DNA of 58,408 nucleotides, counting the filler, from Dugesia japonica (taxonomy: Eukaryota), in the NCBI GenBank assembly GCA_001938525.1. It is 6 parts of 6 records of this genome, joined end to end, with 100 filler letters (N's around TTAATTAATTAA, not from the genome) between each part and the next. Parts side by side here need not be neighbours in the genome. Positions count along the whole stretch, not along the records: positions 17,577 to 29,137 come from MQRL01594293.1; 5 more parts are not named here. One strand, written 5' to 3'. Both the position numbers and the translations under genes were made by a program. Positions 5,032 through 58,408 of the stretch are shown in pieces. The notes beneath the pieces were generated by a model. That model was not told where the DNA came from, did not search any database, and saw only the letters and a program-made list of their open reading frames with translations. Positions within the stretch are counted from its first letter, which is position 1; each line of letters starts with the position of its first letter.

Positions 5032-5090
<59 letters not shown>

Positions 5091-5298: not shown

Positions 5299-7805
5299 TG
5301 TTTGGCTGGAACGCCGAAATGTGAGACAAATGGACGATGTTATATTAAAAAGAGAATAATAGAAAAGAGAATGATGAAAAGAAAGAAAAGTGCTGGGCCG
5401 CCAAATATAATTATTGTCATTAGTCTTATAATACAGGTAAAAAGGCCATTATAGCCATAATATTTAACAAATTAATTATATTTTATTTCTATTATTTGTA
5501 TTATTAATTAATTATATAAAATCCACCGATGGACCAGGCACGGAAAATATTTGGAAAACTAAAATTCTGAATAACAAGAATTAATCACCATACAGACAAA
5601 GATGATAAATAACTTACCGAGATTTAAGTGCAATTTGCATTATCCAAATTGCACGTCTATCAAAATTTGTTGGTTATCTGTACAACTATGAAGGAAGAGT
5701 TATATCATAGAGAAACGTGGCATGGTTACACACTGACGGTGAACAATAACCGACGATGATTTATGAACCAATGAAAAACACCAATCAAGCATCGATTGGA
5801 AATATAAATATAAAGAAATATAAAATAAGATCGACCAGGAAATATAAACGAGAAAATCAGAATCAGAATTNNNNNNNNNNNNNNNNNNNNTTTTTTTTAA
5901 AAAAAATTTCAGACAATTTTTCTTTGATATATTTATTGCGAAATATTTTTTGTGTATTTATTGATTTCGTCTACAACGTTTTACTAAGAAACCAAGCGAT
6001 TTATATTAAAATAAACATTTTTCTATTTTAGAAATTATTTAATGACATTTGTTACGATAATCCGAGTGATAATTGTGAAGTGATGATCGTGTTCCCAGAA
6101 AATGNNNNNNNNNNNNNNNNNNNNNNNNNNNNNNNNNNNNNNNNNNNNNNNNNNNNNNNNNNNNNNNNNNTCAAATTAAAGATGAAAATGAACTTAAAAA
6201 AAGAATATTAATTACTCGAATTGTAAATGAAATGTCATGTAAATTGAAAGATATTTGGCACAAATTAAAGATGAAAATTTATTTAAAGTAAAAAAAAACA
6301 GTTGTATGCATTGAAAAGAAGTGGCATATAAATTGAATGATATTTTGCTCAAATTGAACGTGAAAATTCATATCATGAGAGTTACCTGAATTGCTCAAAT
6401 AGTAAATGACTATTCATATGCATTGAAAGAAATTATTCACTTGATTTGAAAATTAAAGGTCAGGAAATTGCCTACTCAAATTAAAGTTGAAAAAACCAGT
6501 AAATCGACGGGTATTAATTATACTGATTAAAAGTGAGAATTTTAAAAAAACTCACGGACATTATCAATTCCGGGTAAAGTTGAATAATCAAAAAATCGAG
6601 AGATAGTAATTGCTCCAAGAAAATATAAAAGCCCATCAAATTGAAGGACATTATTTTAATTGAATGAAAATGAGAAATCAGATAAATCGAAAAACCATAA
6701 TGGTATAAATCGAAGAATTGAATTTCAGTTGGAAGTGGAAGTCATTAATTGTTGAATTTTAAAACAAGCTTTCAAATAAAATTGAAGGACGATACTTGCT
6801 ATATTAAAAGAGGATTCGTAGTGACAAGAGTACGTCTTGTTGCCTTAAGTGTAGTGTCTGAACAAGTCGAAGTCAGTATACCGTATTAAGGGAGCTCGAT
6901 TATATGATGTGCGAGTCTTTGTTTGATTCTATTGATAGCTCCTTTTATTTTTATTTGAATTATAATTTTAGATTCGTTTTAATGATATATCAATAAATTT
7001 AAATAGCAAGTTTACATTATTTAATATTGGTTGACGTTGATACAATATCTAAATTTAAAATTGAAAGAATGCAATAATTAAAATATTTCTGAAGGCTAGC
7101 TAAATCTTAAATAAAAGGCTCATAAATTTAGTTGACAACTAATAATTACAAATTCCAAGCATCAATGAATTGATAGTAACGACCATCCGTGAAAGGTCAG
7201 TGAATTCTTTCTAGAACTCCGTAAAAGTGTGGACGAGGAAGAATAACTGACAACAGCAAATATCTTCTCTGGTTCACACTTTAGGAGTGATGGAACAAGA
7301 AAATGTTAGGTCATAGGCCGAAGAAACGCTGATTATACCTAGTGTAGAACTATTAGTTAATTTGTTAACTAATTGGTTCGATTTCTATTAGACTCAATAT
7401 TNNNNNNNNNNNNNNNNNNNNNNNNNNNNNNNNNNNNNNNNNNNNNNNNNNNNNNNNNNNNNNNNNNNNNNNNNNNNNNNNNNNNNNNNNNNNNNNNNNN
7501 NNNNNNNNNNNNNNNNNNNNNNNNNNNNNNNNNNNNNNNNNNNNNNNNNNNNNNNNNNNNNNNNNNNNNNNNNNNNNNNNNNNNNNNTTGTCCAATAACA
7601 TCAGAGTAATTACGACGCGATACCACAAAGTCGCACTGGATTCGGAAATGATGGGGCATGGCACATAGGTGTCACAAATACTTGATGGTCTTAGGTATGC
7701 CCCTAGACAGAAACGAAAGCGAGAAGTGAATAAATGGTTAAAGTGATTGATGTAAAGTTTAAGTAAAAAATATAAGTAAAGCATCAAAATCCTAAAACCC
7801 CAACA
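5299..7805 (+). mobile_element. TG...CA-bounded element, copy A (solo-LTR-like), 4-bp TSD CTAT
   Basis: Starts TGTTTGGCTGGAACG and ends CATCAAAATCCTAAAACCCCAACA. CTAT at 5295-5298 and 7806-7809. The 3' ~150 bp is homologous to the 3' end of 18954-23702. Contains internal gaps. Confidence 0.72.
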
Positions 7806-10190: not shown

Positions 10191-10229
10191 CAAATGATAA
10201 AAATATATTTTATAAAAAACTTAACCATG

Positions 10230-12912: not shown

Positions 12913-12964
12913 AATCCCTTCTTTTAGTTATGAAAGATCGATAGAGCAAACTTGTTAACCTGTC

Positions 12965-14831: not shown

Positions 14832-16789
14832 GTAAGTCATTGCTGGGCTCAAATTATTTAAGATCTCAGCTTAATTCTTTCGTAAATTGATTGCCATTTT
14901 AATATTTGATTTGAAAATTGATTGTAAATTAAAACAATTGCAATACTTATATAACATAATAAAAAATTTGGATTATTTATTTGTAGGGTAATGCAAAAGT
15001 ATGTATATTGTAATCATTATAATAATAAATATTATATTTATAAAATTTGAATGAAATATTTTAAATTTAATTTATTTAAGATAATAATAGATAATAATTT
15101 AAGTATTCACTAACAAATGTTGTTTATTAAGCAATATTTGAGAACAATGAACGCTAAAAGGGTTATGAAGAATTTAGCTGAGGAACTCTCTGTCAAATTT
15201 CTTTTCAATTATTTTTTCAGTATTTTCAAAAATATCATTTCCTTCATTGATATCATTCGATATAGAATTAAAAGCTGCGCATAAATGGCCCTAAGGACTA
15301 ATATTGGAAAATGATTCCTTTATGATGAAACATTGGATTTTGTTTAGAGTAGGTAGACTGTAACGCTCTGGATCACGTCATCATCAAAAATTAAAATCTA
15401 AAGATTGTGATACTAATTTGATGAAACAAAGTAAGCCTCGAAGCCCAACAATAATTTAACTATTTGAATTTGCCATTCATTAATTTAAAATAACAAATCA
15501 GCAAAACTGTATTTATTATAATTTGTCATTAAAAACCGAACTTGAACACATAAAATAGAAATTAATTAAAATTCTAAATTATCAATTTTCATAATAAATA
15601 TGTCAATTTATATCTACAAATCAATAAATCTTGAACACAAAATGAACTCAACAATTTATTGAATAAAGTTAATCAATAATCGAAATTATTTACGGAATTA
15701 ATTGTAAATAGTCGCCTTTTTTGAGGAATTTTCAATTGATCATTTTTCAGTCCATTATCAATTGTTTTATTATTATGTGATTTATCATTATTACACATTA
15801 TTTCATTAATATTATCTACATTTTGAGAATAATTCTTTGAATAACCAGTAGATAAACTATCGTAGAAATGTGGAATATTATCTTGGACCTTCATTAATTA
15901 TTAAGTTTATTAATCTGATTGATCTATTTCAATAATCAATTGTGCGAAGCAATTATAATTTCAATTTATGGAGAAAATAAAAAAACAGACAATTTCACTA
16001 GTTATTGTGTAGTTAAGAGAGTATAGAATCCGGGGATTATTAGTGGCGAGATACCGTGATCACATCATTATTTAAATTAGTAAACATTATGATTTTTGTT
16101 TAAATCAACTGAAATTAATGATTTAGTTTTTACGGAAATTCGGGGGGGAAGCCTATTTTTTGTTTTAATTCTTCAAGAAATTAACAAAATTTTGTAATTT
16201 TTAAACATATGGTTATTTTTACATCAATCGATTCAGAAAGAAACGATCAATGGTTACGTCCAACAATTATTCTCGCAATAATTCTTGCAATAGTAAAAAA
16301 TTGATAACAATAAATTAATTTCATGGAAACAGACTTTTTTATATTTTTTTTGGTGTTTTAATGGGATTTTACCGCAACATTCAAGGTAAATACAAATGCG
16401 TGTATCAGTTTTCATAAAGTGAACCGGATCCGGGATTGATAGATTTACGATCCAGAAATTCCGAATTTGTTTTCCATAGTTGGAAATAGTAAAAAATTTA
16501 ATAATCGAGTAATTTTCAATTAACTCAACAGATAATTCCAATACAATGAATTATTTAAACAAATTTTTTAATTAAGGAATACGAATTGCTACTTATACAG
16601 AATTTTCTTAATATAAAACTTGCTTATATAGAGCACTTACTGTGTCTAAATTTGTTTTAATTAAGCCGCAGTTTAAACTAATCAATACCAAAAATCTTTA
16701 TACCAAGAAATTGGAAAACAAGAATTTCGAGTGCTCTTAAAACATTATTTAAAACATTAAAGACTATTCGGGATCAATCGAAATGATTC

Positions 16790-17330
16790 GTAAATGGTTT
16801 ACAGAATTTTCGTTAAGGCCATACAACTCGCAGATAATTACGAATGTCTTGAATGCCCAATAGATTTAATAACACACGAAATGATTCGAAAGATCTTATA
16901 TGATTGTCAAATGAAATTGTACGAGCTAGCTAAGGTTTGTGGGAATTTCAATAGGATCAGTAATTACAATTCTGCATAAAAATTCGGGAAAAGATGCCGC
17001 CCTTTATCACAATTCACCAAAAACACGAGCGTATGCGCTGTTTGAAACAATGTTTGGCATTGCACAAACGCAATTTTAATGAATTTTTTCGAAGTTTTAT
17101 TATTTTTGATAAAACTTGGATCCACCCGTAGACACTTGAAACAAAAAATAAATCAAGACAGTGGAAAAATTAGGCAAACCAGCTGCGAAAAAATGATGAA
17201 GAAAACTGCATCTGCTGGAAAAGTTATGATTGTTATATTTTGGGATTCACGTGGTGTGTATCTTATCTATTACTTTGTAAAAGGAAAAACAATTACTCAG
17301 GAATTTTTTGGTGCATTATTGGTCCGCTTA
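16790..17330 (+). mobile_element. Decayed mariner fragment, Himar1/irritans-like
   Basis: MKLYELAK, ASAGKVMIVIFWDSRGVYLIYYFVKGKTIT (compare SAGKVMASVFWDAHGIIFIDYLEKGKTI). Confidence 0.8.
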
Positions 17331-17520
17331 ATTCAGTCGTTTTCTACCCTTTTGTAGATTCCCATTAACCTTTTATGGACACCATGTGGAGCACGTTGGG
17401 AGCTCCTATATTAATTTAACGAAGTCTACACAAAAAAAATTAAATTCATCATTCAGTAGTCGTAAGAGAATGTTGTNNNNNNNNNNNNNNNNNNNNNNNN
17501 NNNNNNNNNNNNNNNNNNNN

Positions 17521-18659: not shown

Positions 18660-18856
18660 ACAATTTCAATAATTGCGAGAATAATTGAGGACATAACCAT
18701 TGATCGTTTAACAGAATTCCTTTAAAATAAAAGCTTCGATCAAACTTTTTTGTTTTTTTATTGATATTTGATAACAATTCGATATTTTGACTTAGTCTTC
18801 TTCAGAAATTGAAATCAATAAAAAATCAAAAAAATTTATCGAAGCTTTTATTTTAA
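18660..18856. mobile_element. Foldback/MITE-like dispersed repeat (second copy ~39680-39870)
   Basis: Inverted arms TAAAATAAAAGCTTCGAT / ATCGAAGCTTTTATTTTA. The upstream block TTGCGAGAATAATT..CATTGATCGTTT is shared with ~39690. Confidence 0.6.
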
Positions 18857-19439
18857 ATGAATAATAATAAACCTCGATTTTATTTTAATTAATATTAAAT
18901 CTTTTAACCGATTGATCATTATTAATTGTTACTATTTTTACTGAATTAACATTTGTTGGGCTGAAACAGCACAGATCGCTAAAGAATTATAGCTTCTATT
19001 ATATTATTTTTTTTACGCATTACTCGTCTATTAATAGTGGGTACCCCTTTGAGTAATTACTCACGCAATCATTTATCTGCGTTGTTTATTTATTATCTCC
19101 TCACATACACACTCAATAATTTATCTGCGTGAGTAATTTTTTTCTTCCCGCCCCCAGCGCAGCTTTTATTTAATGTCAAGCGGAATCGAGGCCCATGCAC
19201 GCGACAAAGCACAACAGGGGAGAAGTTAAATAGTGTGCACTAGGGCGAAAAAAGACACGCACAGAAATTATTGCGTGAGTAATTACTCAGAAGGACTTAC
19301 CGTGGGTGCGCATTACTACTAGTTGAGTAGTGCGCAAATAAAAAAAGCGCAGAGCGCAGTTAAATAAAACGTGGGGGATCGGAAATATATAATGCGTAAT
19401 TACACGCGTAATTCCGTTAAAATATCATAATTAATAAAT

Positions 19440-20716
19440 ATGGGTAGCACAATAGAGAATTCGTTAAATGAGACAACAGATTCAATAAAACCACTATTGA
19501 AAAGACCAATCGACGGCGGCAATGGTGGAGGATATGAAACTTTTAAACCGGTCGAACCAAGAATACCATTACAAGTAACAAGATCAAGTTTTAGAAAATA
19601 TCAAGAAGAATATAATAAATATCTGGAGGAGTTAGGAAAATGGAATAGAAATAAACAATAATGGATAAAGAAACACTGTAAATAATACACGCGTGAAAAG
19701 AAGAAACAAGAGAACGAATAAATTTATTCGAAAACATGCAAGATTATGAAATAAGGAAAGTAATAACATTTACCGGCGATGAAAGAAGATCATGGAAAAA
19801 GTTGATAGAAAATGAAAAAATCAAAATATACCATTAACTAAGAAAGGTGATATAGAATAATGGATTTACATAGAAAAGAACTAGAGAATGAGAAATTGAA
19901 ACAATTAGAAAAACATAAATTAGATAAAGAATATAAACCAAGTAAAATCATTAAAGACATGCACATGATGAAAATAAAGATGGAAACGTTGAAGAATAGA
20001 TTAAATAAAAGTTTACCACACGAATACGAATCGATAAAAAAATTCCAAAAGAATTAAAAGAATCATTAGTATATTTCGAGAAATAAGATGGAGTAATAAA
20101 TCATCATGAACAATGGTTGAATAACAATCCATTGGAAAGAACAAATTCAATAAACAAATGAAATTATTCACGGAAAAACAAAATAAACCCCCGGGATATC
20201 TGAAAAAGAATATGCATAAATTCACGGGATTTCTATTAGGAGGACTGAAAATAATGGGAAAATCGGTACAATCGCAATAATCGACTCATTAATAGATCTA
20301 GGATTCAGTGGTATAAAAGAAATACAATTATTATGGTCAATACGAAGCTCATAATGTCATTACCGGATAGGATAGCACGTTGGGGGCAAACAAAAGATTT
20401 TACAATGCATGATGTCGTTAAACATATAGAAATGAAAAGACAATTTCCGAAATCAAACATTAAAAGATGGTATTCATATTGAAAAAAAACATGAAAACAA
20501 TTACGATCAATATTATAAAGAAGATCAACCATTAAAATGGGATTACGATTGCGATAAATAAAACCTAATGTATAAATAACAGCAAGAACAAGAAAACCAA
20601 AGTATTCCGAAGAATCAGAACACAATTTCTATTGGTCATTAACAAGTGCAGAATTGGAAAAATATAAAAACATCGTATATTATTACGAACCACCACCACA
20701 ATTCCTATTCATGTAA
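19440..20716 (+). pseudogene. Decayed ORF of unknown function inside copy B
   Basis: ATG at 19440, then K/E-rich coding-like segments (19440-19661, 19860-20057, ..FYWSLTSAELEKYKNIVYYYEPPPQFLFM*) broken by stops and frameshifts. Confidence 0.4.
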
Positions 20717-20796
20717 ATATCTTTCTTTATTTTGTCAAAGCAGGTTTTCCAAAATTATTTATTATTGAGTAAAAATATTATTAATTTTTCAAAAAG

Positions 20797-21100
20797 AATT
20801 CGTGCCGGTCCAATGATCACAGATTTCATTGGCACAGTGCACGCTCAAACGAAACATTGCTCTACATAAAATTATGAAAACACATGCATAGGGTGAGCAC
20901 TGCACTTTATGAAAACACCGAGAGATCTATGACGCCGAGTGAGCACCGGTAATCATACATAAAGCCAAAAAGATACACAAAAGGTAAATGATAAAATGAA
21001 AAATAAAACATGACCAAATGTAGACTTTTCTCCAGAATCTGCTAGTGAAAAGTTGAAAAAGTGAAAAGTCAAAATTTTAAGTTTGCAGCTGGGTATAAGA
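20797..21100 (+). promoter_or_regulatory. Conserved promoter-like module of the element family
   Basis: CGTGCCGGTCC at 20801, GGGTGAGCAC at 20891, GAGTGAGCACCG at 20937, TATAAGA at 21094; same order in the two other copies. Confidence 0.5.
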
Positions 21101-22321
21101 CAGTGCAAAACTTCATAATTTCAGCTTAAAATTTTCGATATAACTCTTGCTAACTTATCAGTAAAAGTTGCAAGTAGTTATAATTATCTTTAAATTCTTC
21201 GGAGAGAATCAGAACAAAAGTAAGTTATTGAATTGTTATTTATCCTAAATACAACTATAAAGGAAGGCTGAGGTAATGATCATCACTCATTAGCTTTGCT
21301 GCCAGTGGTGGTCATCACCTTTCAGTTATCCGCTTCACGAGATCATCCACCAATTATTGATAGTGATTATGAGATGTGATAGATATTGATGATTATGAGG
21401 AATGTGATAGATGAGTTATTATGAGAGACATGATAGATGAATTATTATGAGGGAGGAAAGATGATAGCTTGAAACTGTAAATGCTATTGCTATGATAGAC
21501 GAATTATTGTGAAAGATGATTACTGTTCACACGTATGATAGATGAATACGGTTAATGGTCATTATATTATTAAAATGATGATAAAACTGGTGAAGAGATA
21601 TGATAGTTATGAGAGGTAAACATGAGTGAAACGATGTATATTGAAACAATGATTATGAATGAAATGAATTAAACATGGCAATAAGGCGAGTGTTAATGAT
21701 ACTAAAAACATTGATGAGTGGTTTCTGAATTTTGTCTTTTATTAAATGTTACTTTATTATTACGGTTGTAATTGTTGATGAAAATATTAATTCAAATTTT
21801 TATTAATCATTCTACTTTTGGTTTCCTTATATTACATATTATTGCTTATTCATTATAACTCATATGATAGTTTAATGATTAAATTGATAATAAATACTAA
21901 TAGCGTTATTACATTTAGTAGTTGGATATGACAATGCCACTAACCGGAGAACCATTCGTTATTTGGAGGGAGATGAATTTTTGAAATGTAATGTATGAAT
22001 TAATCAAAATTTATCGAGATGGTTTGGGCAAGATATGGTTACATAGAGATTTACTGAGAGATAACAGTGGTGACAAGGTACCCATGTTATATGAAGTTTA
22101 AAATAACATTGATAGATTCAATGCATGAAGTAGAAGATCCAACTCCATCCACATTGACGAATGATCAATGATCTGCTGGATTTATGGTAAATATATTACA
22201 AATTTAACTCATTAATTAAATTGATCTTCATTTATGAGACGTAAATGTCACCGAGTATTATAAATAATTGTATTATGATTTTATATAAACCTAACCATGG
22301 AAAATACTATTTCGTAATTAG

Positions 22322-22851
22322 ATGTCTCGATATATAACGAAATCAGTAGCAAAAGAATCATTGAAAGCCGGAGGGTATTCATTCCAATTAACTTCTTGTA
22401 ACAATATGCCAGTCTTATGAGACTCACTCGAGCCTATCGGCATCGATGTGGAGCCCTGGGGATCACCCAGGACTAACTGCGAATAAAGAATGAGGAAATT
22501 AAAAGGCTGAAGACAGACATGATTCGATAAAAGCAACAACACACGGAAAAACTCCAACTGATTGGCCATTTACAAATCCGTGTCTATCAACAAGAACAGG
22601 AATATGAGAAACAGCTCGTAAAGGTAACATCATGGCAGCAGGAGCGAAAAAAGGAATTGGTCACTTTGCTGATTCGGACCACGGATCTGGCTAAACAACG
22701 ACACCTAATTCAGGCAATGTTGACGACACAAACGGAAGCAGAAGAGTATAGCAAACTCACAAAGAGGTTGGCAACAAAAGTGGAGACAATTCTACAACAA
22801 GTTCTTAAGCCGTTGGACGAGATTGATATTCTTAAAGAGACAGCTGTGTGA
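22322..22851 (+). pseudogene. Coiled-coil coding exon of element copy B (disrupted)
   Basis: Acceptor ATTAG at 22321. MPVL*DSLEPIGIDVEPW..LLIRTTDLAKQR..EAEEYSKLTKRLATKVETILQQVLKPLDE is homologous to 57223-57705. Confidence 0.6.
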
Positions 22852-23161
22852 TCAAATTTTTCTTTGAACCGCACTATATAGAAAGTTTTGTTCTTATGCT
22901 CTTTATTTTTATTCGTGAATAGAAATAATAATATAAATGTTCATTGTAACGATAAGTAATCACAATTATTATGACAGGGAAGATAAAAAATATGATGAAA
23001 GATAAACTCGATAATAATGCAACATAAATTTATTATCTTATACCTGTCGTTTACGAATTTAAAGATTTCCTATTATTAAATTATCATAAAGCAAATTATA
23101 AATTGCATTATCATTGAAAATATAATCATAAAACAAATATAATATTTTTCATTAATTTCAG

Positions 23162-23466
23162 TGTCAAATGCAAGATTACAGCGATGGCCGATCTGCAGAA
23201 GAAATGGTGTTTGATGCACAAGAAATTACAANNNAAGATCACAGAATTACAACATAAAAATGGACAGCTCCGAGATTTAAAAAATCGATTAAAGGAACGA
23301 GATCTGGCACTCTCGCAGACATGTCGCATGATGGCGGACATAATTAAAGCTTACGCGAATAGAGAAGTGACAACAGTCCGAACGCTGGCTCAAGTACCCA
23401 GGATCTAAAAGGAGACCATAAAGAAGAACAAGGAAGTCATCGACCAGGACGACTTTAATGACATAA
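23162..23466 (+). pseudogene. Second coiled-coil exon of element copy B
   Basis: Acceptor TTTCAG|TGTCAAA conserved with 57883. DLQKKW..KLQ.KITELQ..RLKERDLALSQT..TVRTLAQ is homologous to 57884-58200. Confidence 0.6.
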
Positions 23467-25269
23467 AGCTTTCTTATAAAGAATTGATTTAATTTATGAT
23501 TATCATATATTAATAAAAATGACACCAGAGAAATAAGAGCCAAAAGAAATCGAAATTGTAAACACAAGACGGGATTCAACATAGCCGCACAAATTTCTGT
23601 GGTTATTAGGTATCATCCCAGACATCGAATTAAATCGGAATTACGAAGTTTCGACCAGGAGAGAAGTAATCAGATTAACATCAAAAGCCTAGTAACCCAA
23701 CACATTTAACAAAAGATTCTAATTAAAACAAATTTCATCTACACACAACTAAACAAACAAACGCTCTTACTGCTAAAATCTTTATTAATAATAAAATAAA
23801 ATTTAATTATTCAACAACCAGATTATATAAAAAAATCCTCAATAATGTCGTGTACAACAAAAGGAAATCAGGAGAAACGACACACTATACTTATCTTTCG
23901 TAGCTTGAACTCAACCCAACTTTTATTACATTAAGCTCTCACTTCCTTTGTCTCACTATTATTTTATTGAATTGCTACCTTATACTTATAAATTATTTTA
24001 AGTTTTGTAGAAATAACTTTTCACCACTTTAAATCATTGTTATATTATAGGAGCAGTCTAATCATTTTAAACCAGTTTCGTTTAATCGAAATACGGTCAT
24101 CATTTGTTGAACTAATATCATTTTGTAAAAATACTCCTTTAAAGTTTTAAATCAGTATAATTTAGTTTAAGTTAACAAATAGCATCTTTCACAGTATATA
24201 ATAATCTTTCATAATCTAAATTTTATTAATTCAATTTTCCGTAGTTAAAAAGAATCATTTTTCATAATTTAACATTCAATAAATTCAATCTTAATTTAAA
24301 AATAATCTTTCGTAATTTAAAATTCATTACATGTTAGCCGAATTTGATGTTAATGATTTAGACCTTGATTTCAGTCATTAGAAATTAATTGTCCCGTAAG
24401 TTACAAATTAATACACCCAATATTGAATTAGTCTTGCTGTATTAATAGACGATCTATCGAGTGGAATTTTGCAGATCATGCACAAGCTGCATTACGCGTT
24501 TGTAATTTAAATGGAGATTATTATAAGATATTCAAACAAATTATTATATTATTACCAAAAAAATGAAAGCTGCCTTATGTAACCTTAATTTTTATTATTT
24601 CTACAATTTTTCAACCTTTCTAAACTACCTTTAATATATTTTTTGTCCCATGCACTCGTAAATTAAAAATGAATTAGTTATTTAATCTTTAACCATAGAT
24701 CTGTATTTTATCAAAAAAGTTTTCCAATGCAAAGATCAAAATTGTTTTTTTCTATTTTATTAGATTGTTCAATATTTTGACATAATTTTTAACAGGTACA
24801 ATCCTCGAAATATTAAATATAAAAAACACAATTTTTTTGGGATTTCCAACTAAAATGCTAGTTTATATAGTCTGACTCCTTGAATTCAGGTAAACGTCTG
24901 AAGTTTATAATTAATTCAAAATCGTTCATCAATAATATAAAATAAAATTGTGTAAAATTCTGAAATCACAAATCATTTTTTAGCCAAATTTTCTATACAA
25001 CAATAAAAGTTTTAATAAAATTGTTACATAAAAAATCAAGTTACACAAAATATATTCAAATAATTTTGTTTAATTAAATTAATATATTTTTCCTTTAACG
25101 GACCATTTTAAATTTATTATCATTATTATTACTACTATTATTTTATGTTAAAAATTGTTACATTTAAGATGAAAATGGCACACTAACCGGACAATCACTA
25201 TGCTGTATGTATTATTATTTCTTTAATTTTTAGATAATTGATTTTTTAAATTTTTATTAATTATAATTT

Positions 25270-25324: not shown

Positions 25325-27704
25325 CAGCAACAATTGGATTTGTTTTGTTATTTTGGGTGAGTTGACTTTAATTTTCATTTAACATTTCAATTTGTAACTA
25401 ATATATTTGTGATTAATATAATAATATTGATATTTAAGATTATAATAACTTACAACTCAAACTATATAATTATTCTCACACAAATCATTTAACTATTAAT
25501 CGATTTAATTTACGTTAAATAACCTCACAAATTGCAACTATTGTTAATCGAAATTACCGAATTAAAATCTCAAAAAAAGAAATTGTAGAAAAATTGAGAA
25601 TGAAAATTTAATTTGTTACTTTGGTGTTTGATGAAAATTGTGATTAGAGATATAAATTTTGATGTAATTATTGTAATATAATAATTTATAATTAATATAT
25701 TTATTTATATTTAAATTTTACAATTTAATAATTAAGTGGTAAAATTTGAAGTATACACTATTGCCGCAGATGTAATCTTTCGAAAAACATTAATCTGAAA
25801 CGTGTTTTGTGACTTGTTTATGATCTTTACGCAATATTAAATTCTTGAAATACAACTGTTAGTTGCATATTCAAAATTTTGATCTTAATTTGTTTAGCAT
25901 GAAAATTGATGAAGTATTATAGATATTATTTTCGCGATTTAAATTTGAAGATTAAGCTTTTTAATAATCAATTTAGAAATATAAATTTAAGTTAAACAAT
26001 AATCGTAACATAATCATTATATTTACTTTAAATCGTTTTTAATGCTTATTATACAAACGTTTATAACATTACATTGCTTTCTATTCAGTTATAAAATGAA
26101 CCTATTTTTCTTAAATTCAGAATTATGGAATGTAATATTTCTTAAAATAATAACTAATTTAGTTAGGTGTCAACTGGAAATATCGGGTAAACCTAGATTG
26201 AAATGTTTCTTTAAAAAGACGTTTTCTACTAATGAAAATTAAAACTGCATTCTTTAAATTCCAAAACTAATTTATATTAATTACTTACTTTAATAAGTAG
26301 TTTATTGTTCATTTTAGTATTTATTGTATCTCGATTTATTATTTCGAGATACATCAAAAGTAATCAAGTGAATATTAATAGAGATATATTAGTGATTCAC
26401 AAATTTAGTTTTTCCACGTAAGGAGTAAAATTTACGTGTNNNNNNNNNNNNNNNNNNNNNNNNNNNNNNNNNNNNNNNNNNNNNNNNNNNNNNNNNNNNN
26501 NNNNNNNNNNNNNNNNNNNNNNNNNNNNNNNAATTTTTTTTCCAATTATTATCTGAATTCAAACAACCTTTTATTAATTACAAAATTAAACTAAACTAAA
26601 AAAAATACTGATTAACACATTCGCTACAGACCACATGGTTTGCTCCAACTAACCAATGACTAAAATATAGAGGCATATTTAATCTATTATTTATCGGTGA
26701 AGTCTATTGCAACTGAATACATATTAAGTAGTAAAGCTATGGCTCATACTTGAGACATCAAAATCCTATTTTGGCTAAATCAAACCGGATTTCATATTGG
26801 AATCAGTTTTGTGATCAAGTACAAAAATATTTTGGGTCTATAGAAAANAATGTCATTTTACACTTCGATGGCGAACGTTTTGAGCACCTTTATAAATCTT
26901 CGTCACAAAATGATCAATAAAAATTAATAACAAATAAATGCTCATGAAAGATACTTTCCTTAACTTTTAAAACCAACAATAAAAGAAACAAAATAATAAT
27001 GTTGGGACAGACCACAACCTATATTGAAATTCATGATCTTAATGCTAATTAAATAAACAGAACCCGAAGAAAAATGACAATAATTAACAACAAATGGATA
27101 TTATTCCCGAATAGACAATAAATAAATAAAGGTTGAAACAAATTTCTACGTAAGCCATGGTGTTATTCCACCAAAAATAAGGAAAAACAATTACATCGAA
27201 CAATACCCAAAATTAACTAGAACTTTCCAAATAGAAGAATTCTTTTCATAGAAATTCCATAGTTTTATATTCTATAGCAAACTTTAGAAAAGGAGGAATT
27301 TCACTGAGAGCGAAACTTTTATTTATTTTAAGACTGCGGGAAAATAAAAAATAAATCGAGAAAATGATCGATTAAAACAATAAAATAGGCGAATAAACCA
27401 ATGAACAAGCCCCTTACTCGGGAAAAACAAGTATAAATGTGACCNACAAATCCAACAAAAATACCTATAATCATAATCGTCTTTGTTACCAAGTCAATGT
27501 TTTTGAAAAATAACTAGGCGAATAATAATCACCAAAATTCGAAATTCTAAGTGACAAACTCTAATTGCAGTAATTACCAAGTCCACTGAAGCAATTATCA
27601 ACCAGATTCAAATAATCAGCCTTGTCTCTAGAAAATTGCACTCAAATCCGATCAATTAATCGAATTCAGGAGCAGTAGATCGAGTTACTATTTATTGCAG
27701 TCAT

Positions 27705-27930
27705 CATTGGAACTTTCCATTTCAAATTATTAACTGAGAAATAACTATCACAATTACTCTTAGAGAATATCTAGTCAAGCAAATCAGCAATTATCGAAAC
27801 TTTCAATCTCAAATTTCCAACAGAATAATAATTACAACAATTACGCCCAGAGAATCTCATAACAGACAATCCAATAATTATTGGAACTTTCAATCCCAAA
27901 TTGTCAACTGAGAAATAATTACCAACTACT
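27705..27930 (+). repeat. Three degenerate ~87-bp tandem units
   Basis: GAACTTTC(C/A)AT..CAAATT..(C/T)AAC.GAGAAATAA.TA recurring at ~27710, ~27797 and ~27883. Confidence 0.6.
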
Positions 27931-28741
27931 TCTAGCGAATTTCTCCTAGCTAGTAGAATAAATTATCTCAGGAATCCACTCTATTTGGCGATAAATAGTA
28001 TTTAAACGACATTGTTTACCGAGTCAAGATTCATTTTAGATAGACATTCATTCTCGATAGTNNNNNNNNNNNNNNNNNNNNNNNNNNNNNNNNNNNNNNN
28101 NNNNNNNNNNNNNNNNNNNNNNNNNNNNNNNNNNNNNNNNNNNNNNNNNNNNNNNNNNNNNNNNNNNNNNNNNNNNNNNNNNNNNNNNNNNNNNNNNNNN
28201 NNNNNNNNNNNNNNNNNNNNNNNNNNNNNNNNNNNNNNNNNAAATATAAAATCAGTTAAATGCAGATTAATATTCCCAAATTTATGTTTTAATTTAAGGG
28301 TAAATTTAAAAATAGTAAAAATTATATATTCTTTGAATTGAAAGACACACAAGAAAATAAGGGTTATCATGAAATGAATTATGTTATAGCAAATGATTTA
28401 TTAGGAAAATTATTCGTCAAAATAAACTACAGTATTAAAATACAATACAGTAGCAATATCTAAATAATTTTTTTAAAATAATAAAAATTCTAAAGAAATA
28501 TTTGTTATAGCAAATGATATCGCCATATCTGAGAAGCTAGTCTTTAGTACAACATTTCATACAAAACAAGGATGATAAATAAAATGCAAGAGACATCACT
28601 GGCTTGTATTATTTAAGTTAACTTCAGAGACAGTTTTAACTTAATAAATCAATAATCATTGCAACAATTTACATATCTAGTTTGATTTTTAAGTCAATTT
28701 TATTTAATATATCAAATTACTTTTTAGGTGGAATATTTGAA

Positions 28742-30141: not shown

Positions 30142-30183
30142 ACAATTGTTGGTATTAATTGTTGGCAATTAAATATAGAAGTA

Positions 30184-31455: not shown

Positions 31456-31545
31456 TAGTACTATTATAAACTCATTCTAAATAAACAATGGGTGGTTTAC
31501 AATCATTACCTAATTTTGATTTAATATTTTCATCAAATTGTTGTA

Positions 31546-32870: not shown

Positions 32871-32904
32871 ACAGTTCAGTGCTAAATCAATAGCAAATAA
32901 TAAT

Positions 32905-48714: not shown

Positions 48715-51700
48715 NNNNNNNNNNNNNNNNNNNNNNNNNNNNNNNNNNNNNNNNNNNNTGATTGTCGATGTCAAAACTCCATTCGACACTGAACTCAGAT
48801 TTAAAGAAAATGACAATAAGAACAAAGCTAAATATGAGATCTTAAAATCCCTGTAAACACCTTCATTATTAGAGTGATTGGTTCATGGAACTCTGATAAT
48901 GAATAATTTTTTTAACAGAAATTAAATCATTAAATTAAATGAATTCCGTTAATTAAACAAAAACAAAGTAATTTCAAGGTGATTATTTAATAAAAAATTT
49001 TTGATTAATCAAATTTAAACTAATTTTTAAAAAAAAATCAACCGAATTAAAATCAATAAATTAGTTTGCATAATTTAATTTAATGGAATTTAGATTATTT
49101 TTAAATAATAAATTAATGTCATTAATTAACTTTATTTTAAGTGAATTTCTTTAACTTGTTAATCAAGAGCAATCCAAAAAAAAAATTTTAATTCAAATTT
49201 TATAATTCAAGATAAATGTTTGACATCGCATAAAAATTTAACTAATGACATTAATATAGTATATCTTATTCCAACCCTTCTTTTACAGTCATTGTTTTAA
49301 TTTTACCTCCTGAAAATTTAACAACACCTTTATCTTTATCGATCATAATACTTTTGATTAAATCGTTCAGCTTGTTTAGAAGTTTCACTTTCATTTTTCT
49401 ACAATCAGATAACTCTGAAAATATTCTGTTCACTTTATCAAATTAATCATTCAGTTACATTGTTATTATTTCTTTATTCTTTTTTTTCACTTCCAATTTT
49501 TATTTCATTTTCTGATGCACTCAACATTTCACATTCGATAATTTCATCCAAATTCATTATTTTATTTGCTCTTTCTAAATTAAATTGTTCAAGTTTTTGA
49601 ATGATTAAATCATTTTCCATTTGCTTTTTTGAGAATAAGATTTTCACCAAATTCGTTATTCTTCAATATCATATTTTTCTTCTTTTATTAATTATTCGAA
49701 ACTAATTTATTCTAAGCACTCATAAAACTTTTCAATTGTTTTCAATTCATTCGATTTTTTTTACTTTTTAGTATTGAACACATTTTTTTTTCATCATCAA
49801 GAATTTCAAATTCATCCAAATTTAATGTTTCATTAATTAGTGATTCAAATGTCATATTGAAATGTTTAATTAAATCATTTCCGTTCATTTCCGATGATAA
49901 ATATTCATTCGTGTTTATACCGAGATTTTCTAGGTATTTCAAATGATTTAGCGTTTTAATGGTTTCTAGATTTATATCGTTAAATTATCGATTTTTGATA
50001 AATTTTCTATTCTGAAATTATTTCATCCATTATTAAAATTTCATTTCTAACATCAAAAAAATCTTCATTTAATAATCCTTCAATTATCTCGTACAATTAT
50101 CAATTACCAACAATTTATACTCGATGTAAACTAACTTTTCGAATTATATTAAGTTGTTGGTATATTCTGATTCAATTGAATGAATATATTCAATGGACTC
50201 GCACAAACCGTGAAGAGCAACTCACCAAAACAATTGAGAATGAAATAATCGTCTCCGTTAGGACCGCGATTATTGATTGTTCCGATTTCAAATGAATTGG
50301 AAAGAAAAGTATCGTATTTAATAAGGTAATAGTTATTTTCTTTAACTGTTATTAACTGTTAATTTATTTCAGATTTGTCAAATTTTAAATTATAATATTC
50401 AGCAGGTGATCATTGACAACTCAGGATTGTTTATTTTTAATAAAGAGACTGTGTGTTCCTTTTTATTTTATATATCAATTAATGCGTTTTAATCTAAGTT
50501 TTAATTTATTAAAAAAAATCTTAATTTAATGAAATTTAATAATTGCTTAGTTTTAAAATAAAATTCAGGTGATAACGAACTGGAAATTTAACGATTCAGT
50601 TTATATTTTATGTAACCACAAACATTTTTAAGTAAATTCAATTAAATCGATGTTCGAATTTATATTAGTACGAATTTGTAGAGTCAATACGTCTATTTAG
50701 AAAGAAAAACGTATAACTTTTAAATACTATTATTTTCGCGTTGTCAAATTTTTTTTATTTTGCGCCGCTTTGTTTGTGCTTATTTCTCTTACAATGTTTT
50801 GTTATGGAACTTATGAAAGTATTTGTCAACAACATCTCTTATCATCCTTATCAACGTTTATTTTGGTAACCAAGTAATTCTGCTTAATATTCGAATAATT
50901 TTACAACTAAAATTTAGCATTTTTCTTTTTTTTAACATTGATTTTCATTTAATGCCGTTTTACATTAATAAATATTAAAGTTTTAAAATCCTGGTATAAA
51001 TTTATTATTTTTAATTCCAAGGTTGACATTAATATGCAAATATTAATAAAATGTGCTTAAACAATCGACATGATCTAGGATTCTCTATATCATAATAGTT
51101 TTGAAATATTACAGAGATAATTTTTAACCACAGTCATTTTGATGAAATTAATTCGTAGTGAAGTAATTTAATTATTTAGTATAATATAATGGACACATTT
51201 TGCTCAAACTTTAAGTTCCTTTTCGCTTCAGAATTGGTATCCATTTACTATTTTGTCCAACATTATATGTTTGTTTGATTATTTAAGAATCTATCTTTTT
51301 ACCGAATTGATTTTAGATTTATTTGTGGATGGATTATTAATGTGATTTTGATAGTTTTACGCGTATCCACGATGATTTTTAGAACATTTTACTCAATATC
51401 CCGACCGAGCCCCCAAAATTCTTGTTGGAGTTTTATCTAGGTGGGTTGATTTTTGTAATTAAGTATAGGGTGATCGGCCTAGTAAAACCCCGTGAAGAAT
51501 TTAATCTGGTGTCCCCAAAATTTCAGATCTTCGGAATGGAGCCGGTGACTCGGAATCCGAGGACAGATTAGCATTCCTTTGGTTTGGTTTCATACTTCGC
51601 GATACTCGCTTGCTTCTCAAGACATACTTAATCCCTATTGTCTATTAGTTCCTGGTGTCAGTGCTTTGCATTTTATGTCTATGTCTAATCAATGTTTCTC

Positions 51701-54700
51701 CATATCTATACTCGTTATGATGAGTAGGGATTGAATATATGATAGAGTAGTTAAATTGATGGCTTTAGTGGTTAACTTTAAAAGTCATGAGCGAAAGTTA
51801 AGTGCTATGTGAGCTTAATATTATCCTGAGGCCCAGATTTTCTAACAAAACAAAAAATCATCATTATACCTCCTTGTAGTTAGTTACATATTGTCAATAA
51901 ACGGTAAATTATATGAGCACGATTCGTCACTAAGTCCATTATTAAATAATCTCTCCCATTAGCGCCAAGTTTCATCAATATTTCGAGTCAATAACACTCC
52001 ATGGGAGGCACTGCTAACTAGAAAAGAGTAGTTAATCTAGTTTAAAAATCTCTGTTTTAATTTATCATGAGCAATGAACCATGTGTTAGTTAATTGTTCC
52101 TAGTATGAACGTTTTTGATTGATCATTTTACTTATTACTTGGTTGCTAAAAGGTGAGTTAATTTTAGTTCTAATAACTGGTGTTAGTTTGATAAAAGAAT
52201 TCAAATAAAATGAAATTGCATTAAATAAAAGAAATTCGGTTAGTGAAAGTTATATTATTGTTAATTCCACCAGTTGCATATTAACAAAAATTACATCAAT
52301 AAAACAAAAAACTAACATTGACTGCTTCTCGATCTGGAGCAAGCAATGTTTTATGACATTTTATGTACTACTAAAAATACGGCATTTCATACTGGAGAGC
52401 CTAATATATAAGCTAAAGTCGGCTTAGGAGTGATGTAGAAATGATACATGCATAGAGCGCTATAATTAAGGGGCGGCAAATTGACCGCAATTTGTTTTCA
52501 CGTTTTTTAAAATTATATTNNNNNNNNNNNNNNNNNNNNNNNNNNNNNNNNNNNNNNNNNNNNNNNNNNNNNNNNNNNNNNNNNNNNNNNNNNNNNNNTG
52601 GACTAAATTTAATATTAACTTGATTATAAGGTGTAATTTATATTGATAATGTGGACTAAATTTAATATGAATTTCTTTTAATGTGATTTTTTTTGAACAT
52701 TTTTCAATAAAATAAATTTAATATCTTACTTAATTGGTTTCAATCGACACTATTGCGTAAGATAGGTATAAATTTTATATTTTTAATTCAACAATCATTA
52801 CATTTTCAGTTTTTTTTAAATCAAATTTTTTGTAGAAAATGTAAAAAGTTCTTTTAATAATGGATAAGAGAAAAAAACTATCTGGTGCTGAATATCATAA
52901 GCGAAAAGTTCAAAAGAAGTTGTATTTTATTATTTAAAATCAATGCTCACAAATATTAGGTAATCATTTATTATCAAAGTTCATTTTCAACCTCAATGAA
53001 TGCTTATTTTATTAATTATTATCAAAGGTCGAATGAATAATAAATCTAACTTTGTTAATAGTTTATAAACTATTGCATTCACAAATATTCACATAATTTT
53101 TAAATGGAAATTATTTGCGAAAGTCATTTTTTTAAATTTTATTAATTTCTTTTATAATTATTTATAATCAAATCATCGTTGACGAGTGTAATGGCCATTA
53201 TTGAACATGAATAAGACGATGACCAACAAAAGTATTATTTTTCTAATTTATTATTATTTTTATAATATTATTATTATAAGACTTTTATCAACTGGCAAAC
53301 AAAATGAAAAAAATCCATTTAGAATGAAGATTATGATGACGAAGTTTACGATGCTCATGATGATGATGGATTTAGGAATAAAGTAAGAAAATATAATTTT
53401 AAATTATTATCATTATTATTAATATCAATATCATTAGTATTATCATTTATATCATTATTATTATGTTGAGATCATAAAAAGTATCAAATACATAAACATA
53501 CAGAAACAAACATACGCAAGCATCAAGCACACACATAAACACAACAAACCTTCAAGACAATTCAGAATTAATTCAGCAGAAGCAATCAATCCCAACAATT
53601 CAGTTCAACAGATGATCCAATAAATTGATTTTAGGCAAATTTTAGACTTATGCAAAACATTGAACATCGTTTATTTTGATTTTATTTTTATTTTGTAAAT
53701 TAATTTGTAAATAATGTCATTTTCAATTTTTAGTTATTACTGATTTGCGATCGATTTTCTAGACATAACTTGGAATTTATGTAGAAAATTTTCTGACATT
53801 TATAATTCAGATTGAAAATTTTTATGTCCTGACATCTTAATGAATAAAAAAAAGTGTGCTAGACAATAATTTTAATGAAAAGGTGTGCTAATAATTTACA
53901 TGTATATTTTGTTAAAAATTTTTATTTTTTTTGTAGTGGTGTACGTATAAGTGCGCTCACAAAAATCAGTATAAATACTGATTGGTTTTTCATAATTATC
54001 AGACGACTTTGATCAGTTAGCATTCAACCTCTCTGTGCGGGATCGCTAACTTGATTTAAAATTAGCTAATAGGAATTTAATTATTCTTTTACATTATATC
54101 TATTATATACCAAAAATAAAATTTTTCAAAGGTATTGATTATTTATTTATATAAGGAAGCTACACGAATATTACTATATTTATATTTTGAATAATTATAT
54201 TTGTTAAATAACACAGTACTGACATACAGCAAGGTATAAAATTAACACCCGTAAACTCAATAGATAAGTATTATTTCATTAGCATTCAATTAACGAATCA
54301 ATAAATCTCTTGTTGAGTANNNNNNNNNNNNNNNNATTATTATTATTATTGTTGGGCTGAAACAGGCCAGTTATTAAAACAAAGACGAACTAACAAAGAG
54401 AAGAGACGATGTTGTTAAGCATAAATGAAATAATAAAGGAAGAGCGGAAGAATAAGTTAGATAAATTGATTAATGAGAATTTTATACAAGAAATATTGAG
54501 AGAATTTAAATAAATAAGTCAAGAAACGGTTAAATGATCAAAGTCCTAATAATCAATGAACTCAAAGCACAGAAGCTCAAATGAAAATAAAGGCGGCTCC
54601 CGAAATAAGAGAAAAGTTTGAATTAAATATACGAATTAGATCAGGAAAGTGTAAAGGAGAAATATTCAAAGTAATGAAATCGAAAATGGAAATTGCCAGT

Positions 54701-55730
54701 GTATGTATTATTATCTATAATTAAATATCTGTTATAAAAGTAGAATTATAAAGAAAGAATTATTAAAATATAATAAATAATTATTTTACAGTAGAAGTAA
54801 AACAAGAAAATAAATAAGACAGAAGTCATCGTTGTAATTATAGTTAAATCCATAATAAAATTATTATATTATCGATAAGAAAATTATACTATTATAATAA
54901 AGTATTTAAATAGGTAAAATTTAATATTATTATGATTTAGTAANNNNNNNNNNNNNNNNNNNNNNNNNNNNNNNNNNNNNNNNNNNNNNNNNNTTATAAA
55001 AGTAGAATTATAAAGAAAGAATTATTAAAATATAATAAATAATTATTTTACAGTAGAAGTAAAACAAAAATAATTTATATTAAATGATTTCGGTAAATTA
55101 ACTAGGATGACAAGAAAATAAATAAGACAGAAGTCATTGTTGTAATTATAGTTAAATCCATAATAAAATTATTATATTATCAATAAGAAAATTATACTAT
55201 TATAATAAAGTATTTAAATAGGTAAAATTTAATATTATTATGATTTAGTAAATATTATTAATTATTAAAAAGAAAGTGATATTAAAAGACCAAATGGATA
55301 TGTAGTAATAAATAAAAAACGTTAAGTAAGAATTTGAAAGAATATTAAATTAATTCCAAGTATTTGAGTGTATATTCATACTTGTAATACAGAAGCAAAT
55401 TATTTAAAATATTATTTTTTTGTAATAAATATTATTAAAATTATTATTATCATATACATTATTATTGAAATAGAAAGTAGAATTTTAAAATAAAATTTAT
55501 ATCCAAAAGGAAATAAAAAGTTAAATAAGAATTATATATTATATTAAATTATTTATATTCCTTTCTGCCATTATTTATATTTATAGTCGAAAAACAAGGT
55601 TTTCGAAATTATTATTTTTAATAATAAATATTATTATTTTTGTAAAGCGGTTCGTGCCGATTCAGTGAACACAGATGTTGTTAAAATCGTGCATGTTACC
55701 ACCAGAAATATTATTAGAGATTAGCAGTGA

Positions 55731-55862
55731 CGGGTGAGCACCGCACATTGTGTATAATCTCTAAAAAATTGTGTCGAGTGAGCACCGCACATTATGTACA
55801 AAACTAAAAATTGTGTGTTGGGTGAGCTCCGCACATTGTGAAGAAAATCTGAGACCGATTCA
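55731..55862 (+). repeat. Three 44-bp tandem units containing G(G/A)GTGAGC(A/T)CCGCACATT
   Basis: Units start at 55731, 55775 and 55819. Confidence 0.85.
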
Positions 55863-57222
55863 GCGCCGGTGCTCATATGTATGAAGATCCCGAGACAATA
55901 TGAAAATAAAATCATGTTCAAATTTTGACATTTCTATCTAATCTGCGAATGGGCACCGCATGATTGAGCAAATATCAAAAATCTACCTACCTGAAATGTC
56001 AATATTGACAAGCAGAGAATTGATATAAAACGAAATGTAGAATTAAAAGAGAGTAGCTAGTTATAATTGTTTTGTTATAATTGTTGTTACAGATTTTTGC
56101 AATAAAACGCTTAAAACTCTTAAAAAGTGATTTTGCGTTTTATAATTGGAGAATCGTTTATTATTAGTTTATTATTAACTATTTTAAATTATGCAAACGG
56201 AATACTGGGACGATGTTCATCGTTGACTAGCTACGCTGGCAATGATGGGCACCGGTGCTCAGAGATCCGACAACACGAGACCGTTCACTCGGAGAAGTGA
56301 AATTATATTATGAATTATTAAATCATACCATTATCGATGAAATAAATTATGAAATGATTATTGATAACATGAACTATGAAATTATTATTGATTATATAAA
56401 ATGATTATTAATGAAACGATTAATTATGATATGAGTTATGAAGCGATTATTTATGATACGAATTATAAAATGATTATGAAACGACAATCATGTAATTANT
56501 TATGACTTCAACCANGGCCCAGAAGGTTGAGCGAGATTAATGGTAATAAAGATGAGATAGGATGAGAAGGGATTAAATGGTTAAAGACTTAAGACAAATA
56601 AAGATAAACCTGTTGATGGTGGTTGAACTCTTTAACTCTAGTAAATCTTAATTCTTTTGATATGATGTGGACATTCAATGTTCGATTTATTGTAATTATA
56701 TTTNNNNNNNNNNNNNNNNNNNNNNNNNNNNNNNNNNNNNNNNNNNNNNNNNNTATGATGTGGACATTCAATGTTCGATTTATTGTAATTATATTTAAAA
56801 TATTATTTTGTTTTATGAATTAAGTGTAACGTTTTGATTTAGTAGATAATAATGAATTCATATTGTTAAATTTAAAACCTCAATTTATTAGCTATGTATT
56901 TTAATTTTAGCAGCTGGTAATGATAATGAACTAAAGACAGAAAGATCATTCGTTATTGGGAGAGAAATGGATTTCCAAATGTGAAACATATTAATGTAAA
57001 GTTGTGCAAGTATATTAGACTTCCTAAAGGAGATGAAGAGTGACAATGTATATGCAGAGAGGTTAATCCAATTCTCTCTCCATTGACGAGTAATTGATAT
57101 CTGCTAGTGATGATAATTATAAAATGACAAATTATTTAGATGTTGAATATATATGATATTACTAAATTATTATTAAATGACAATACACCTAACAAAATCA
57201 ATGAACGCTACGTTATTGACAG

Positions 57223-57705
57223 ACAAAGGATGCTACTTCTCTGCAGACGCCAGTAAGAGCATGCCAATACTATGGGATTCGATAGGTAAATATGGTACCG
57301 ACACCGATCCTTGGTGGATCACACAAGACAAATTACGGCAAAAAGAGATAAAGATTAGAGCTGAGGAAACAACTGGTCAGACAGAAAGAAACACTAAGAC
57401 AGAAACTGACCACTCTGGAGGAAATGGAAATCAAAGTCGACCAACAAGAACAACGATCCCAACAACGACTCGCGGAACTCACCCAGTACCAGGATGAACG
57501 GGAGCAAGAACAAGTAAAACTGCTCATACGGACGACAGAGTTAGTTAACTATCAGCAGCGGGTCATTAAATCAATGCGAGCGACTCAATTGGAAGCCGAG
57601 GAGCACACGAAATTATGTGAACGACTCTCCGGAAAAGTAGAGACTATTTTGCAATAAGTGCTTACACCACTCGATGATGTTAACACTATCGAAACTAATG
57701 TGTAA
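57223..57705 (+). pseudogene. Coiled-coil exon of copy D (frameshift and stop)
   Basis: MPILWDSIGKYGTDTDPWW..LLIRTTELVNYQQRVIKSMRATQLEAEEHTKLCERLSGKVETILQ*VLTPLDD. Confidence 0.6.
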
Positions 57706-57883
57706 TCTCAGTTTGACTTTAATCTAATATAGTTTTATGTTTATGCTTTGTATTATGTTAATTGATGTAATTGATCCTACTAATTAAATTGAATTGCATA
57801 GTTAGTAAAATAAAATAAAATGAATATATATTAGCAATATCTTATACTAACTGTACAGAAATGACATTCATTAATATTTTCAG

Positions 57884-58200
57884 TGTCAAANTCTAGGAAA
57901 TTGACCGATACATCACTCACGGACATCAGGAAAAAGTGGTTTTCAATCCAGAGAAAGTTGCAGAACGAGATAGTAGAATTGCAGAAAAAGAACTCTCCCT
58001 TACGGGAGAAGAATACCCGGTTACATGAACGAGATCTTGCACTTTCCCAAACATTTCGGGCGATTGCGGACATCAATAAAACTAACGCAGATAGAGAGAG
58101 CATTCTCATAGCCACAGTTCGAACTTTAGCACAGGCATCGAAGCCTGAAAAAGAATTCGTGACGGATAAGACAAAGGAAATCATTGATGTGGATGAATAA
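57884..58200 (+). CDS. Second coiled-coil exon of copy D (open)
   Basis: Acceptor TTTCAG at 57883; DIRKKW..KLQNEIVELQ..RLHERDLALSQT..TVRTLAQ. Confidence 0.6.
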
Positions 58201-58408
58201 AAACTATTTCTTGCAATAAAATTTTTCTATCTAATGTGTCTCAGAGTTTTTTTTCTCGAAATGAAGTATTTAACGAATGACATTTTTTGAGATGAGAGCC
58301 AGATGAAAAAGAAATTAAACACCTAAGACGGGATCCTCGGCTTTGGTAAATTAGGGTTGATTTTGTTTGAATTTTCAAGTTTTTTAAATTATTTTAAACT
58401 TTTTTGGT

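Follow-up and report, generated by a model that had tools for sequence, protein, structure and literature searches.

Multi-kilobase units with LTR-type ends and conserved small genes in the planarian Dugesia japonica, probable solo LTRs of giant Ty3/Gypsy families

The long terminal repeats (LTRs) of animal Gypsy elements typically comprise a few hundred bp of regulatory DNA, and LTRs of over 1 kb with 4-bp target site duplications (TSDs) occur in the insect elements Woot, Ulysses, and Osvaldo. A protein gene can lie inside an LTR, as with sag of mouse mammary tumor virus and the overlapping nef of HIV, each being one gene rather than a cassette of two or three. The gypsy LTRs of Daphnia are reported with a mean length of 354 bp and a maximum of 938 bp (PMC2996953). 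Of the giant Ty3/Gypsy elements, Ogre, of the plant Tat lineage, is described with multi-kilobase LTRs (1.9 to 6.5 kb) and extra open reading frames (ORFs) of unknown function, and Burro/GYPSM1 of dugesiid planarians as a giant Gypsy element in an AT-rich animal genome, over 30 kb in total with an internal region of up to 25 kb, accessory ORFs, and an Smc-type coiled-coil motif (PMC6431247). In these descriptions, the extra ORFs of Ogre are internal and not in the LTR, and the extra domains of Burro/GYPSM1 lie in the polyprotein or in an upstream internal ORF (PMC6431247). Here, we describe units of several kilobases with LTR-type ends in a 58,408-nucleotide stretch of the Dugesia japonica assembly GCA_001938525.1 (27% G+C), hereafter the window, which comprises six scaffolds joined by 100-nt linkers (44 N, 12 nt, and 44 N). 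We consider it probable that they are decayed solo LTRs of several related giant-LTR Ty3/Gypsy families in which the LTR carries its own small accessory genes. The class as such is known; what is unusual is that a 4-kb LTR holds a cassette of two genes under selection, one of them from an unnamed protein family.

Copy 1 (18954..23702, plus strand; 4,749 bp) is a complete TG...CA unit running from TGTTGGG to CCCAACA, with CATT at 18950..18953 and again at 23703..23706. Copy 2 (5299..7805, plus strand; 2,507 bp, with N at 272 positions and internal repeats of 89 bp) runs from TGTTTGG to CCCAACA between CTAT at 5295 to 5298 and at 7806 to 7809. Both units, their ends, and their duplications had been put forward in an earlier inspection of the DNA by eye (here, the sequence-only reading) and were confirmed, so that a 4-bp TSD flanks both copies that have their two ends in view. 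When a relaxed end motif with identical 4-bp flanks was sought, two pairs were observed; two pairs arose in none of 300 dinucleotide shuffles per scaffold and at least one in 6 of 300, in a test that is post hoc in that its motif was drawn from the observation itself. The short inverted repeat of Metaviridae LTRs is given as TGTTRNR...YNYAACA (PMC3601003), and its 5′ half was matched in full by copies 1 and 3 and with one mismatch by copy 2, its 3′ half in full by copies 1 and 2. The inverted termini are as short as first noted, 7 bp in copy 1 and 6 of 7 in copy 2, and terminal inverted identity ends after 7 bp. An alignment of the two 3′ ends, also proposed earlier, scored 61 against 26.7 ± 4.7, which none of 2,000 shuffles reached; the match over the last 130 to 150 nt falls into two distinct blocks (0 of 2,000 shuffles for each), and the score of the first 30 nt was reached in 13 of 2,000. 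The hexamer AATAAA lies near the 3′ end at 23512, 7729, and 58215, a weak criterion given how common it is in DNA of this composition; the candidate poly(A) signal of copy 1 (23512..23517, plus strand) is 190 nt from the 3′ end. The units are real insertions, with LTR-type ends and 4-bp target duplications.

No end-to-end direct repeat was found in copies 1 and 2, and they are therefore not elements with two LTRs. A search for reverse transcriptase, integrase, or transposase inside the copies found none, in line with the sequence-only reading. That reading had also suggested looking for loci where two copies flank gag-pol, with a primer binding site after CCCAACA and a purine tract before TGTTGGG. 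No primer site was seen 3′ of copy 1 or copy 2, and their left flanks are AT-rich and free of purine tracts, as is to be expected of solo LTRs. Copies 2 and 3 start in or beside ATT microsatellites (4988 to 5302 and 54336 to 54349), which may reflect a target preference.

The copies lie on four of the six scaffolds. Copy 3 (54350..58408, plus strand) runs off the end of the window, leaving its right end and TSD outside; the left arm of its terminal stem is at 58345. It opens with the same 16-mer, TGTTGGGCTGAAACAG, as copy 1 (at 18954 and 54350), an identity already recognized in the sequence-only reading and for which base composition gives an expectation of 4e−6 second copies. Copies 1 and 3 are colinear from 20701 and 55557, respectively, up to the window end at 58 to 64% identity (nhmmer E values, 1.5e−26 and 6.3e−26). 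The inverted fourth copy that had been placed at 35740 to 37580 proved real, partial, and on the minus strand, at 36940 to 38132; it consists of a central block and the AT-rich part upstream of it, is truncated by the scaffold end, and shares 64% identity with copy 3 over 1,059 columns. The interior of copy 2 matched no other copy, nhmmer searches included. Because copy 2 shares ends only with the others, the set, earlier taken as four copies of one family, is instead a group of related families, at least two in number. Downstream of copy 4, an A-rich, coding-like decayed stretch (35716 to 36930, minus strand) terminates in an inverted 12-nt sequence that resembles the 5′ terminus. This stretch matched none of the copies, and the look-alike is probably a CCAAT-box motif of another repeat.

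Contigs of the DNA runs X1 and X3 were placed on the copy 1 region at 80% likeness, giving a depth that is not a copy number. In X1 it was 20 to 35 in the right flank, 23 to 80 over an insert in copy 1 described below, 60 to 340 over the ORF region, and 900 to 7,000 over the central block, and the X3 profile had the same shape. Individual contigs joined conserved blocks over differing spacers (20837 to 20924, 23231 to 23547, and 23619 to 23672). Given this rise in depth and the bridging of conserved blocks across different spacers, further diverged copies exist. At 23619, one loose contig end runs on in sequence like that of copy 2, which links the families of copies 1 and 2. Run X12 (organism B) yielded short near-identical pieces only, at a depth of 2 to 6, and no orthologous site. 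A joint from 18870 to 23789 present in two runs was rejected as an empty site, its sides being 22 nt of AT-rich DNA. The 16-mer occurred at 118 loci in metagenome contigs, all of at least 30% G+C, and BLASTN of the four copies against those contigs gave a single 41-bp AT-rich match that was rejected as chance. Next to copy 1 lies a short repeat of very high copy number that has inverted ends (18660 to 18856; also at 39673 to 39876, 16238 to 16298, and 44698 to 44753), whose depth exceeded 300,000 in X1 and X3 and which was the only part of the examined stretch with clear RNA reads.

The central conserved noncoding block (20701..21290, plus strand) is common to copies 1, 3, and 4 and holds repeated GTGAGCAC-type motifs; it is a candidate enhancer or promoter. 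Beyond it lie small genes. ORF-A, of about 175 codons, encodes an N-terminal domain plus a coiled coil and is broken in both copies that carry it, by stops and a frameshift in copy 1 (22322..22851, plus strand) and by a frameshift and one stop in copy 3 (57177..57705, plus strand). ORF-B, of about 100 codons, follows a conserved TTTCAG acceptor in copy 1 (23162..23453, plus strand), where there is a premature stop near 23406, and is open in copy 3 (57884..58200, plus strand), with the AATAAA at 58215 downstream; the acceptor-like TTTCAG|TGTCAAA before it is kept in both. A possible short third gene, ORF-0 (21922..22170, plus strand), follows a conserved AG acceptor, with a weak signal (13 codons; ratio of nonsynonymous to synonymous change, 0.55). 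Between copies 1 and 3, differences at the three codon positions numbered 47, 28, and 70 in the C-terminal piece of ORF-A (111 codons; proportions of synonymous and nonsynonymous differences, pS and pN, of 0.86 and 0.31) and 26, 18, and 57 in ORF-B (90 codons; pS 0.80 and pN 0.26), and the N-terminal piece of ORF-A gave a pS of 0.79 and a pN of 0.40 over 45 codons. Synonymous sites are saturated and replacement sites are not, and the third-position excess is absent in the other two frames. ORF-A and ORF-B have been conserved by purifying selection.

When 1.84 billion representatives were searched exhaustively by HMMER, the two ORF-B copies as queries gave six matches at E values up to 0.001. 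One, P0006, a plant repeat protein, was dropped as spurious, and the other five are true homologues of 83 to 112 amino acids (E values, 5e−11 to 4e−4), all unnamed and all from European Nucleotide Archive (ENA) and Logan contigs of 508 to 1,894 bp. They share the core RELAL-Q-NR--AD--K-YADRE, and an acidic V/I-D-L/V-D tail ends ORF-B of copy 3 and three of the five homologues, the other two ending in ELD. An AlphaFold2 model of ORF-B predicted one helix (residues 6 to 82) and a disordered tail (pLDDT, 86.7; pTM, 0.48). No family name was obtained for ORF-B from Pfam, PHROGs, PDB, or Atlas: Pfam and PHROGs gave sub-threshold coiled-coil matches only, the best PDB match by sequence had an E value of 0.2, and an Atlas search with the homologue P0003 named no family. 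Searches of viral and prokaryote contigs found no ORF-B. For ORF-A, the best Atlas match of the N-terminal piece (0.85) was not a lead, a word search with the C-terminal piece gave four candidates, none of them scored, and an ORF-A-like peptide at 52090 to 52049 (E value, 0.10) was not counted. With these homologues, ORF-B makes up a small protein family that has no name and can serve as a probe for parent elements in other animals.

A fifth LTR, overlooked in the sequence-only reading, was recognized on the minus strand of the last scaffold (51423..53597), with its 3′ end, CCAACA, at 51423 and a tentative 5′ end, TGTTGGG, at 53597. At a distance of 7 nt past its CA end lies a tRNA-Pro-type primer binding site (51398..51415, minus strand), identical at 16 of 18 positions to the PBS-Pro sequence of murine leukemia virus as given in PMC4587795; the next best such site in the window matched at 13 of 18. 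On folding, a terminal stem (arms 51489 to 51478 and 51441 to 51427, minus strand) closes just before the terminal CAACA, and copy 1 has a corresponding stem (arms 23601 to 23610 and 23688 to 23697, plus strand, spanning 23601..23697). Among 712 AACA-ending sites ranked by the strength of the terminal duplex, the fifth LTR end came 1st, copy 1 6th, and copy 2 112th. A paired stem motif matches exactly these three ends, from which it was itself drawn post hoc. Other TGTTGGG or CCCAACA sites (27000, 15450, 53597 on the plus strand, 55816, 57464, and 30435) had neither homology nor a stem and were set aside. The fifth LTR is supporting evidence of moderate weight for LTR identity and not proof, because its kinship to copies 1 and 2 rests on the terminal stem motif and their resemblance in primary sequence does not reach significance. 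If it is kin, the plus strand is the sense strand of copies 1 to 3.

The sequence-only reading had offered two explanations, giant gene-carrying solo LTRs or a new nonautonomous class mobilized in trans. It is the former that LTR-type ends, 4-bp TSDs, the lack of internal direct repeats, a poly(A) signal, the genes, and a similar end with a tRNA primer site all favor. A full-length gag-pol parent would have used a tRNA-Pro primer for reverse transcription, and its integrase would have inserted it with a 4-bp stagger. Its two LTRs would then have recombined with each other, with loss of the interior, so that a single LTR stayed behind between the original TSDs. More tentatively, each LTR may be a transcription unit of its own: transcripts would start from a promoter within the central block, be spliced to the conserved acceptors ahead of the small ORFs, and be polyadenylated at the AATAAA that lies some 190 nt short of the 3′ end. 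The units may be Burro-like LTRs, the comparison with Burro, as with Ogre, resting on published descriptions.

Several observations weigh against solo LTRs of such parents. The window shows no gag-pol enclosed by a pair of these LTRs. A donor site recognizable in copies 1 and 4 was not apparent in copy 3, and one poly(A) run, of which a quarter was read, gave a depth of 0 to 0.84 over the unit and no splice joints. Depth also peaked in the two terminal bins (10,433 and 18,607), but the neighboring repeat (18660 to 18856) and the AT-rich flank are confounding there, and these peaks were not relied on. The stem of copy 2 is not in the lowest-energy fold (z = −0.18). For the fifth LTR, shuffles reached the primary-sequence scores against copies 1 and 2 in 181, 158, and 220 of 2,000 cases, nhmmer gave no link to the copies at an E value of 0.5, and its end ranks 8th of 755 by similarity; the fifth LTR may therefore be unrelated to them. 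The 7-nt gap before its primer site is longer than usual, and the 2.2 kb behind that site (49219 to 51400) held no gag, its three minus-strand frames having no Pfam match.

Mobilization in trans would make the units nonautonomous DNA transposons with passenger genes, moved by a Gypsy-integrase-like transposase of the Ginger/IS481EU type, and we regard this as unlikely. Ginger1 and Ginger2/TDD are described with TGT ends (TGTNR), 4-bp TSDs, lengths of 2.6 to 7 kb, and introns, and Ginger2 is said to favor AT-rich targets (PMC2836005). Internal splice acceptors and the lack of a mobility enzyme inside the copies fit such elements, an integrase-like DDE transposase not being required of nonautonomous members. 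The inverted 12-mer at 35716 stands roughly where an end of copy 4 could be, as the best nonmember of 1,580 sites by likeness to the 5′ end, but the motif recurs in unrelated DNA at 29637 and 43631. The termini themselves are a poor fit. Terminal inverted repeats (TIRs) of 40 to 270 bp with CCGG or CCGT targets are given for Ginger1, and of about 45 to 300 bp (45 to 297 bp in the tables) with RTATAY targets for Ginger2/TDD (PMC2836005), and GingerRoot is described with TIRs of 100 to 150 bp and 6-bp TSDs (PMC6839031). In contrast, the units here have 7-bp inverted termini and two asymmetric ends, lack both long TIRs and an integrase-like transposase, and are flanked by CATT and CTAT, neither CCGG/CCGT nor the core of RTATAY. 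A primer site after a similar end (51423) likewise speaks against a DNA transposon.

Two further explanations keep the LTRs and change their owner or their kinship. The units could be LTRs of a nonautonomous derivative resembling large retrotransposon derivatives (LARDs), with long LTRs, no gag-pol of its own, and enzymes borrowed from another Gypsy family. All LTR features would be the same as for a giant-LTR Gypsy element, and the DNA behind the primer site of the fifth LTR is without recognizable gag; however, just 2.6 kb of the inside is in view, giant elements are described that can carry accessory ORFs upstream of gag (PMC6431247), and nothing positive speaks for a missing pol, so we give this little credence. 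Copies 1 and 2 lack the two terminal direct repeats with an internal primer site by which LARDs and terminal-repeat retrotransposons in miniature are defined. Least probable of all, copy 2 and the fifth LTR could be unrelated families with generic LTR ends, leaving copies 1, 3, and 4 as one family of open class. Neither has interior homology to the rest, and TGTT...AACA ends are described as common to most LTRs (PMC3601003). Against this, the 3′ ends of copies 1 and 2 match in the two separate blocks reported above, and an intermediate end is present in a public run; such a reading concerns chiefly the fifth LTR.

Decayed solo LTRs thus remain our preferred reading, and the LTRs at issue would be 2.5 to 4 kb long with two selected protein genes. 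Accessory genes inside the LTR would be an added location for retrotransposon genes, one that survives LTR-LTR recombination, and for annotation, such solo LTRs resemble host genes or unknown repeats. No published description of this LTR family was found in the literature, although the family may already be included in Repbase or Dfam or treated in the Burro papers; a literature search aimed at LTR-encoded ORFs in gypsy elements returned no paper. A wider proposal, which we hold to be doubtful, is of an undescribed giant-LTR Gypsy clade in several animal lineages, each LTR being a spliced cassette of two to three small coiled-coil proteins, with ORF-B (one helix ending in an acidic VDLD tail) as a counter-silencing factor and even solo LTRs helping in trans. 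The tail of ORF-B is taken by us to resemble a SUMO-interacting motif, and ORF-B might, speculatively, counter SUMO-dependent silencing.

Copy 1 carries a low-copy insert of about 1.7 kb (19004..20700, plus strand) that is absent from and unrelated to copy 3; without it, copy 1 is comparable to copy 3, at about 4 kb. Its X1 depth was 23 to 80 against 25 to 34 in the flank, and a joint from 20385 to 20462 suggests a second genomic copy. The insert begins with a hairpin of about 340 nt (19004 to 19346; fold z = −4.37, 0 of 100 shuffles) whose arms hold two copies of a 14-nt palindrome. Next come a TATA-like site and then a broken frame (about 425 codons, from ATG at 19440 to about 20716). In its layout, the insert resembles the left end of a linear single-stranded DNA virus, and a densovirus- or parvovirus-type origin might be entertained, as yet unproven. 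The broken frames gave no match in Pfam or other databases; HUH endonuclease or SF3 helicase motifs behind a terminal hairpin would mark an element of that type.

Scans of the window with Rfam and for tRNA genes returned 0 matches. Its content is otherwise animal-like, with a TFIIH p62 exon, mariner transposases, a Polinton-type integrase and polymerase B, and remains of Gypsy protease and reverse transcriptase. The p62 sequence is the first exon (12157 to 12378, minus strand), 74 to 77% identical to one UniParc protein, with the other exons outside the window. A decayed Gypsy gag-protease-reverse transcriptase-RNase H stretch (41830 to 43700, plus strand) and an integrase remnant (12930 to 13500, plus strand) followed by a purine tract near 13605 showed no link to the giant LTRs. 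At 27000 to 28061, a TGTTGGG start after TAA repeats is followed by 87-bp tandem repeats (27703 to 27944); this may be another LTR family and has no homology to copies 1 to 4 or the fifth LTR. An intact-looking ORF of about 190 codons (1510 to 2184, minus strand), with no Pfam match, would encode a multipass membrane protein, and a satellite of short AT-rich units (8986 to 10209) lies at a scaffold start. Polinton/Maverick remains were located at 31570 to 34313 and 45800 to 46500 (plus strand) and at 47120 to 48543 (minus strand); one scaffold holds both integrase (rve; E value, 3e−10) and polymerase B (E value, 1e−4), and another has, by eye, a polymerase-B-like tail and small ORFs. A near-complete mariner with a broken transposase (30201 to 31454) has 38-bp inverted ends (30175 to 30212 and 31427 to 31464; 92%), and further mariner pieces lie near 2580 to 3440 and 16780 to 17360.

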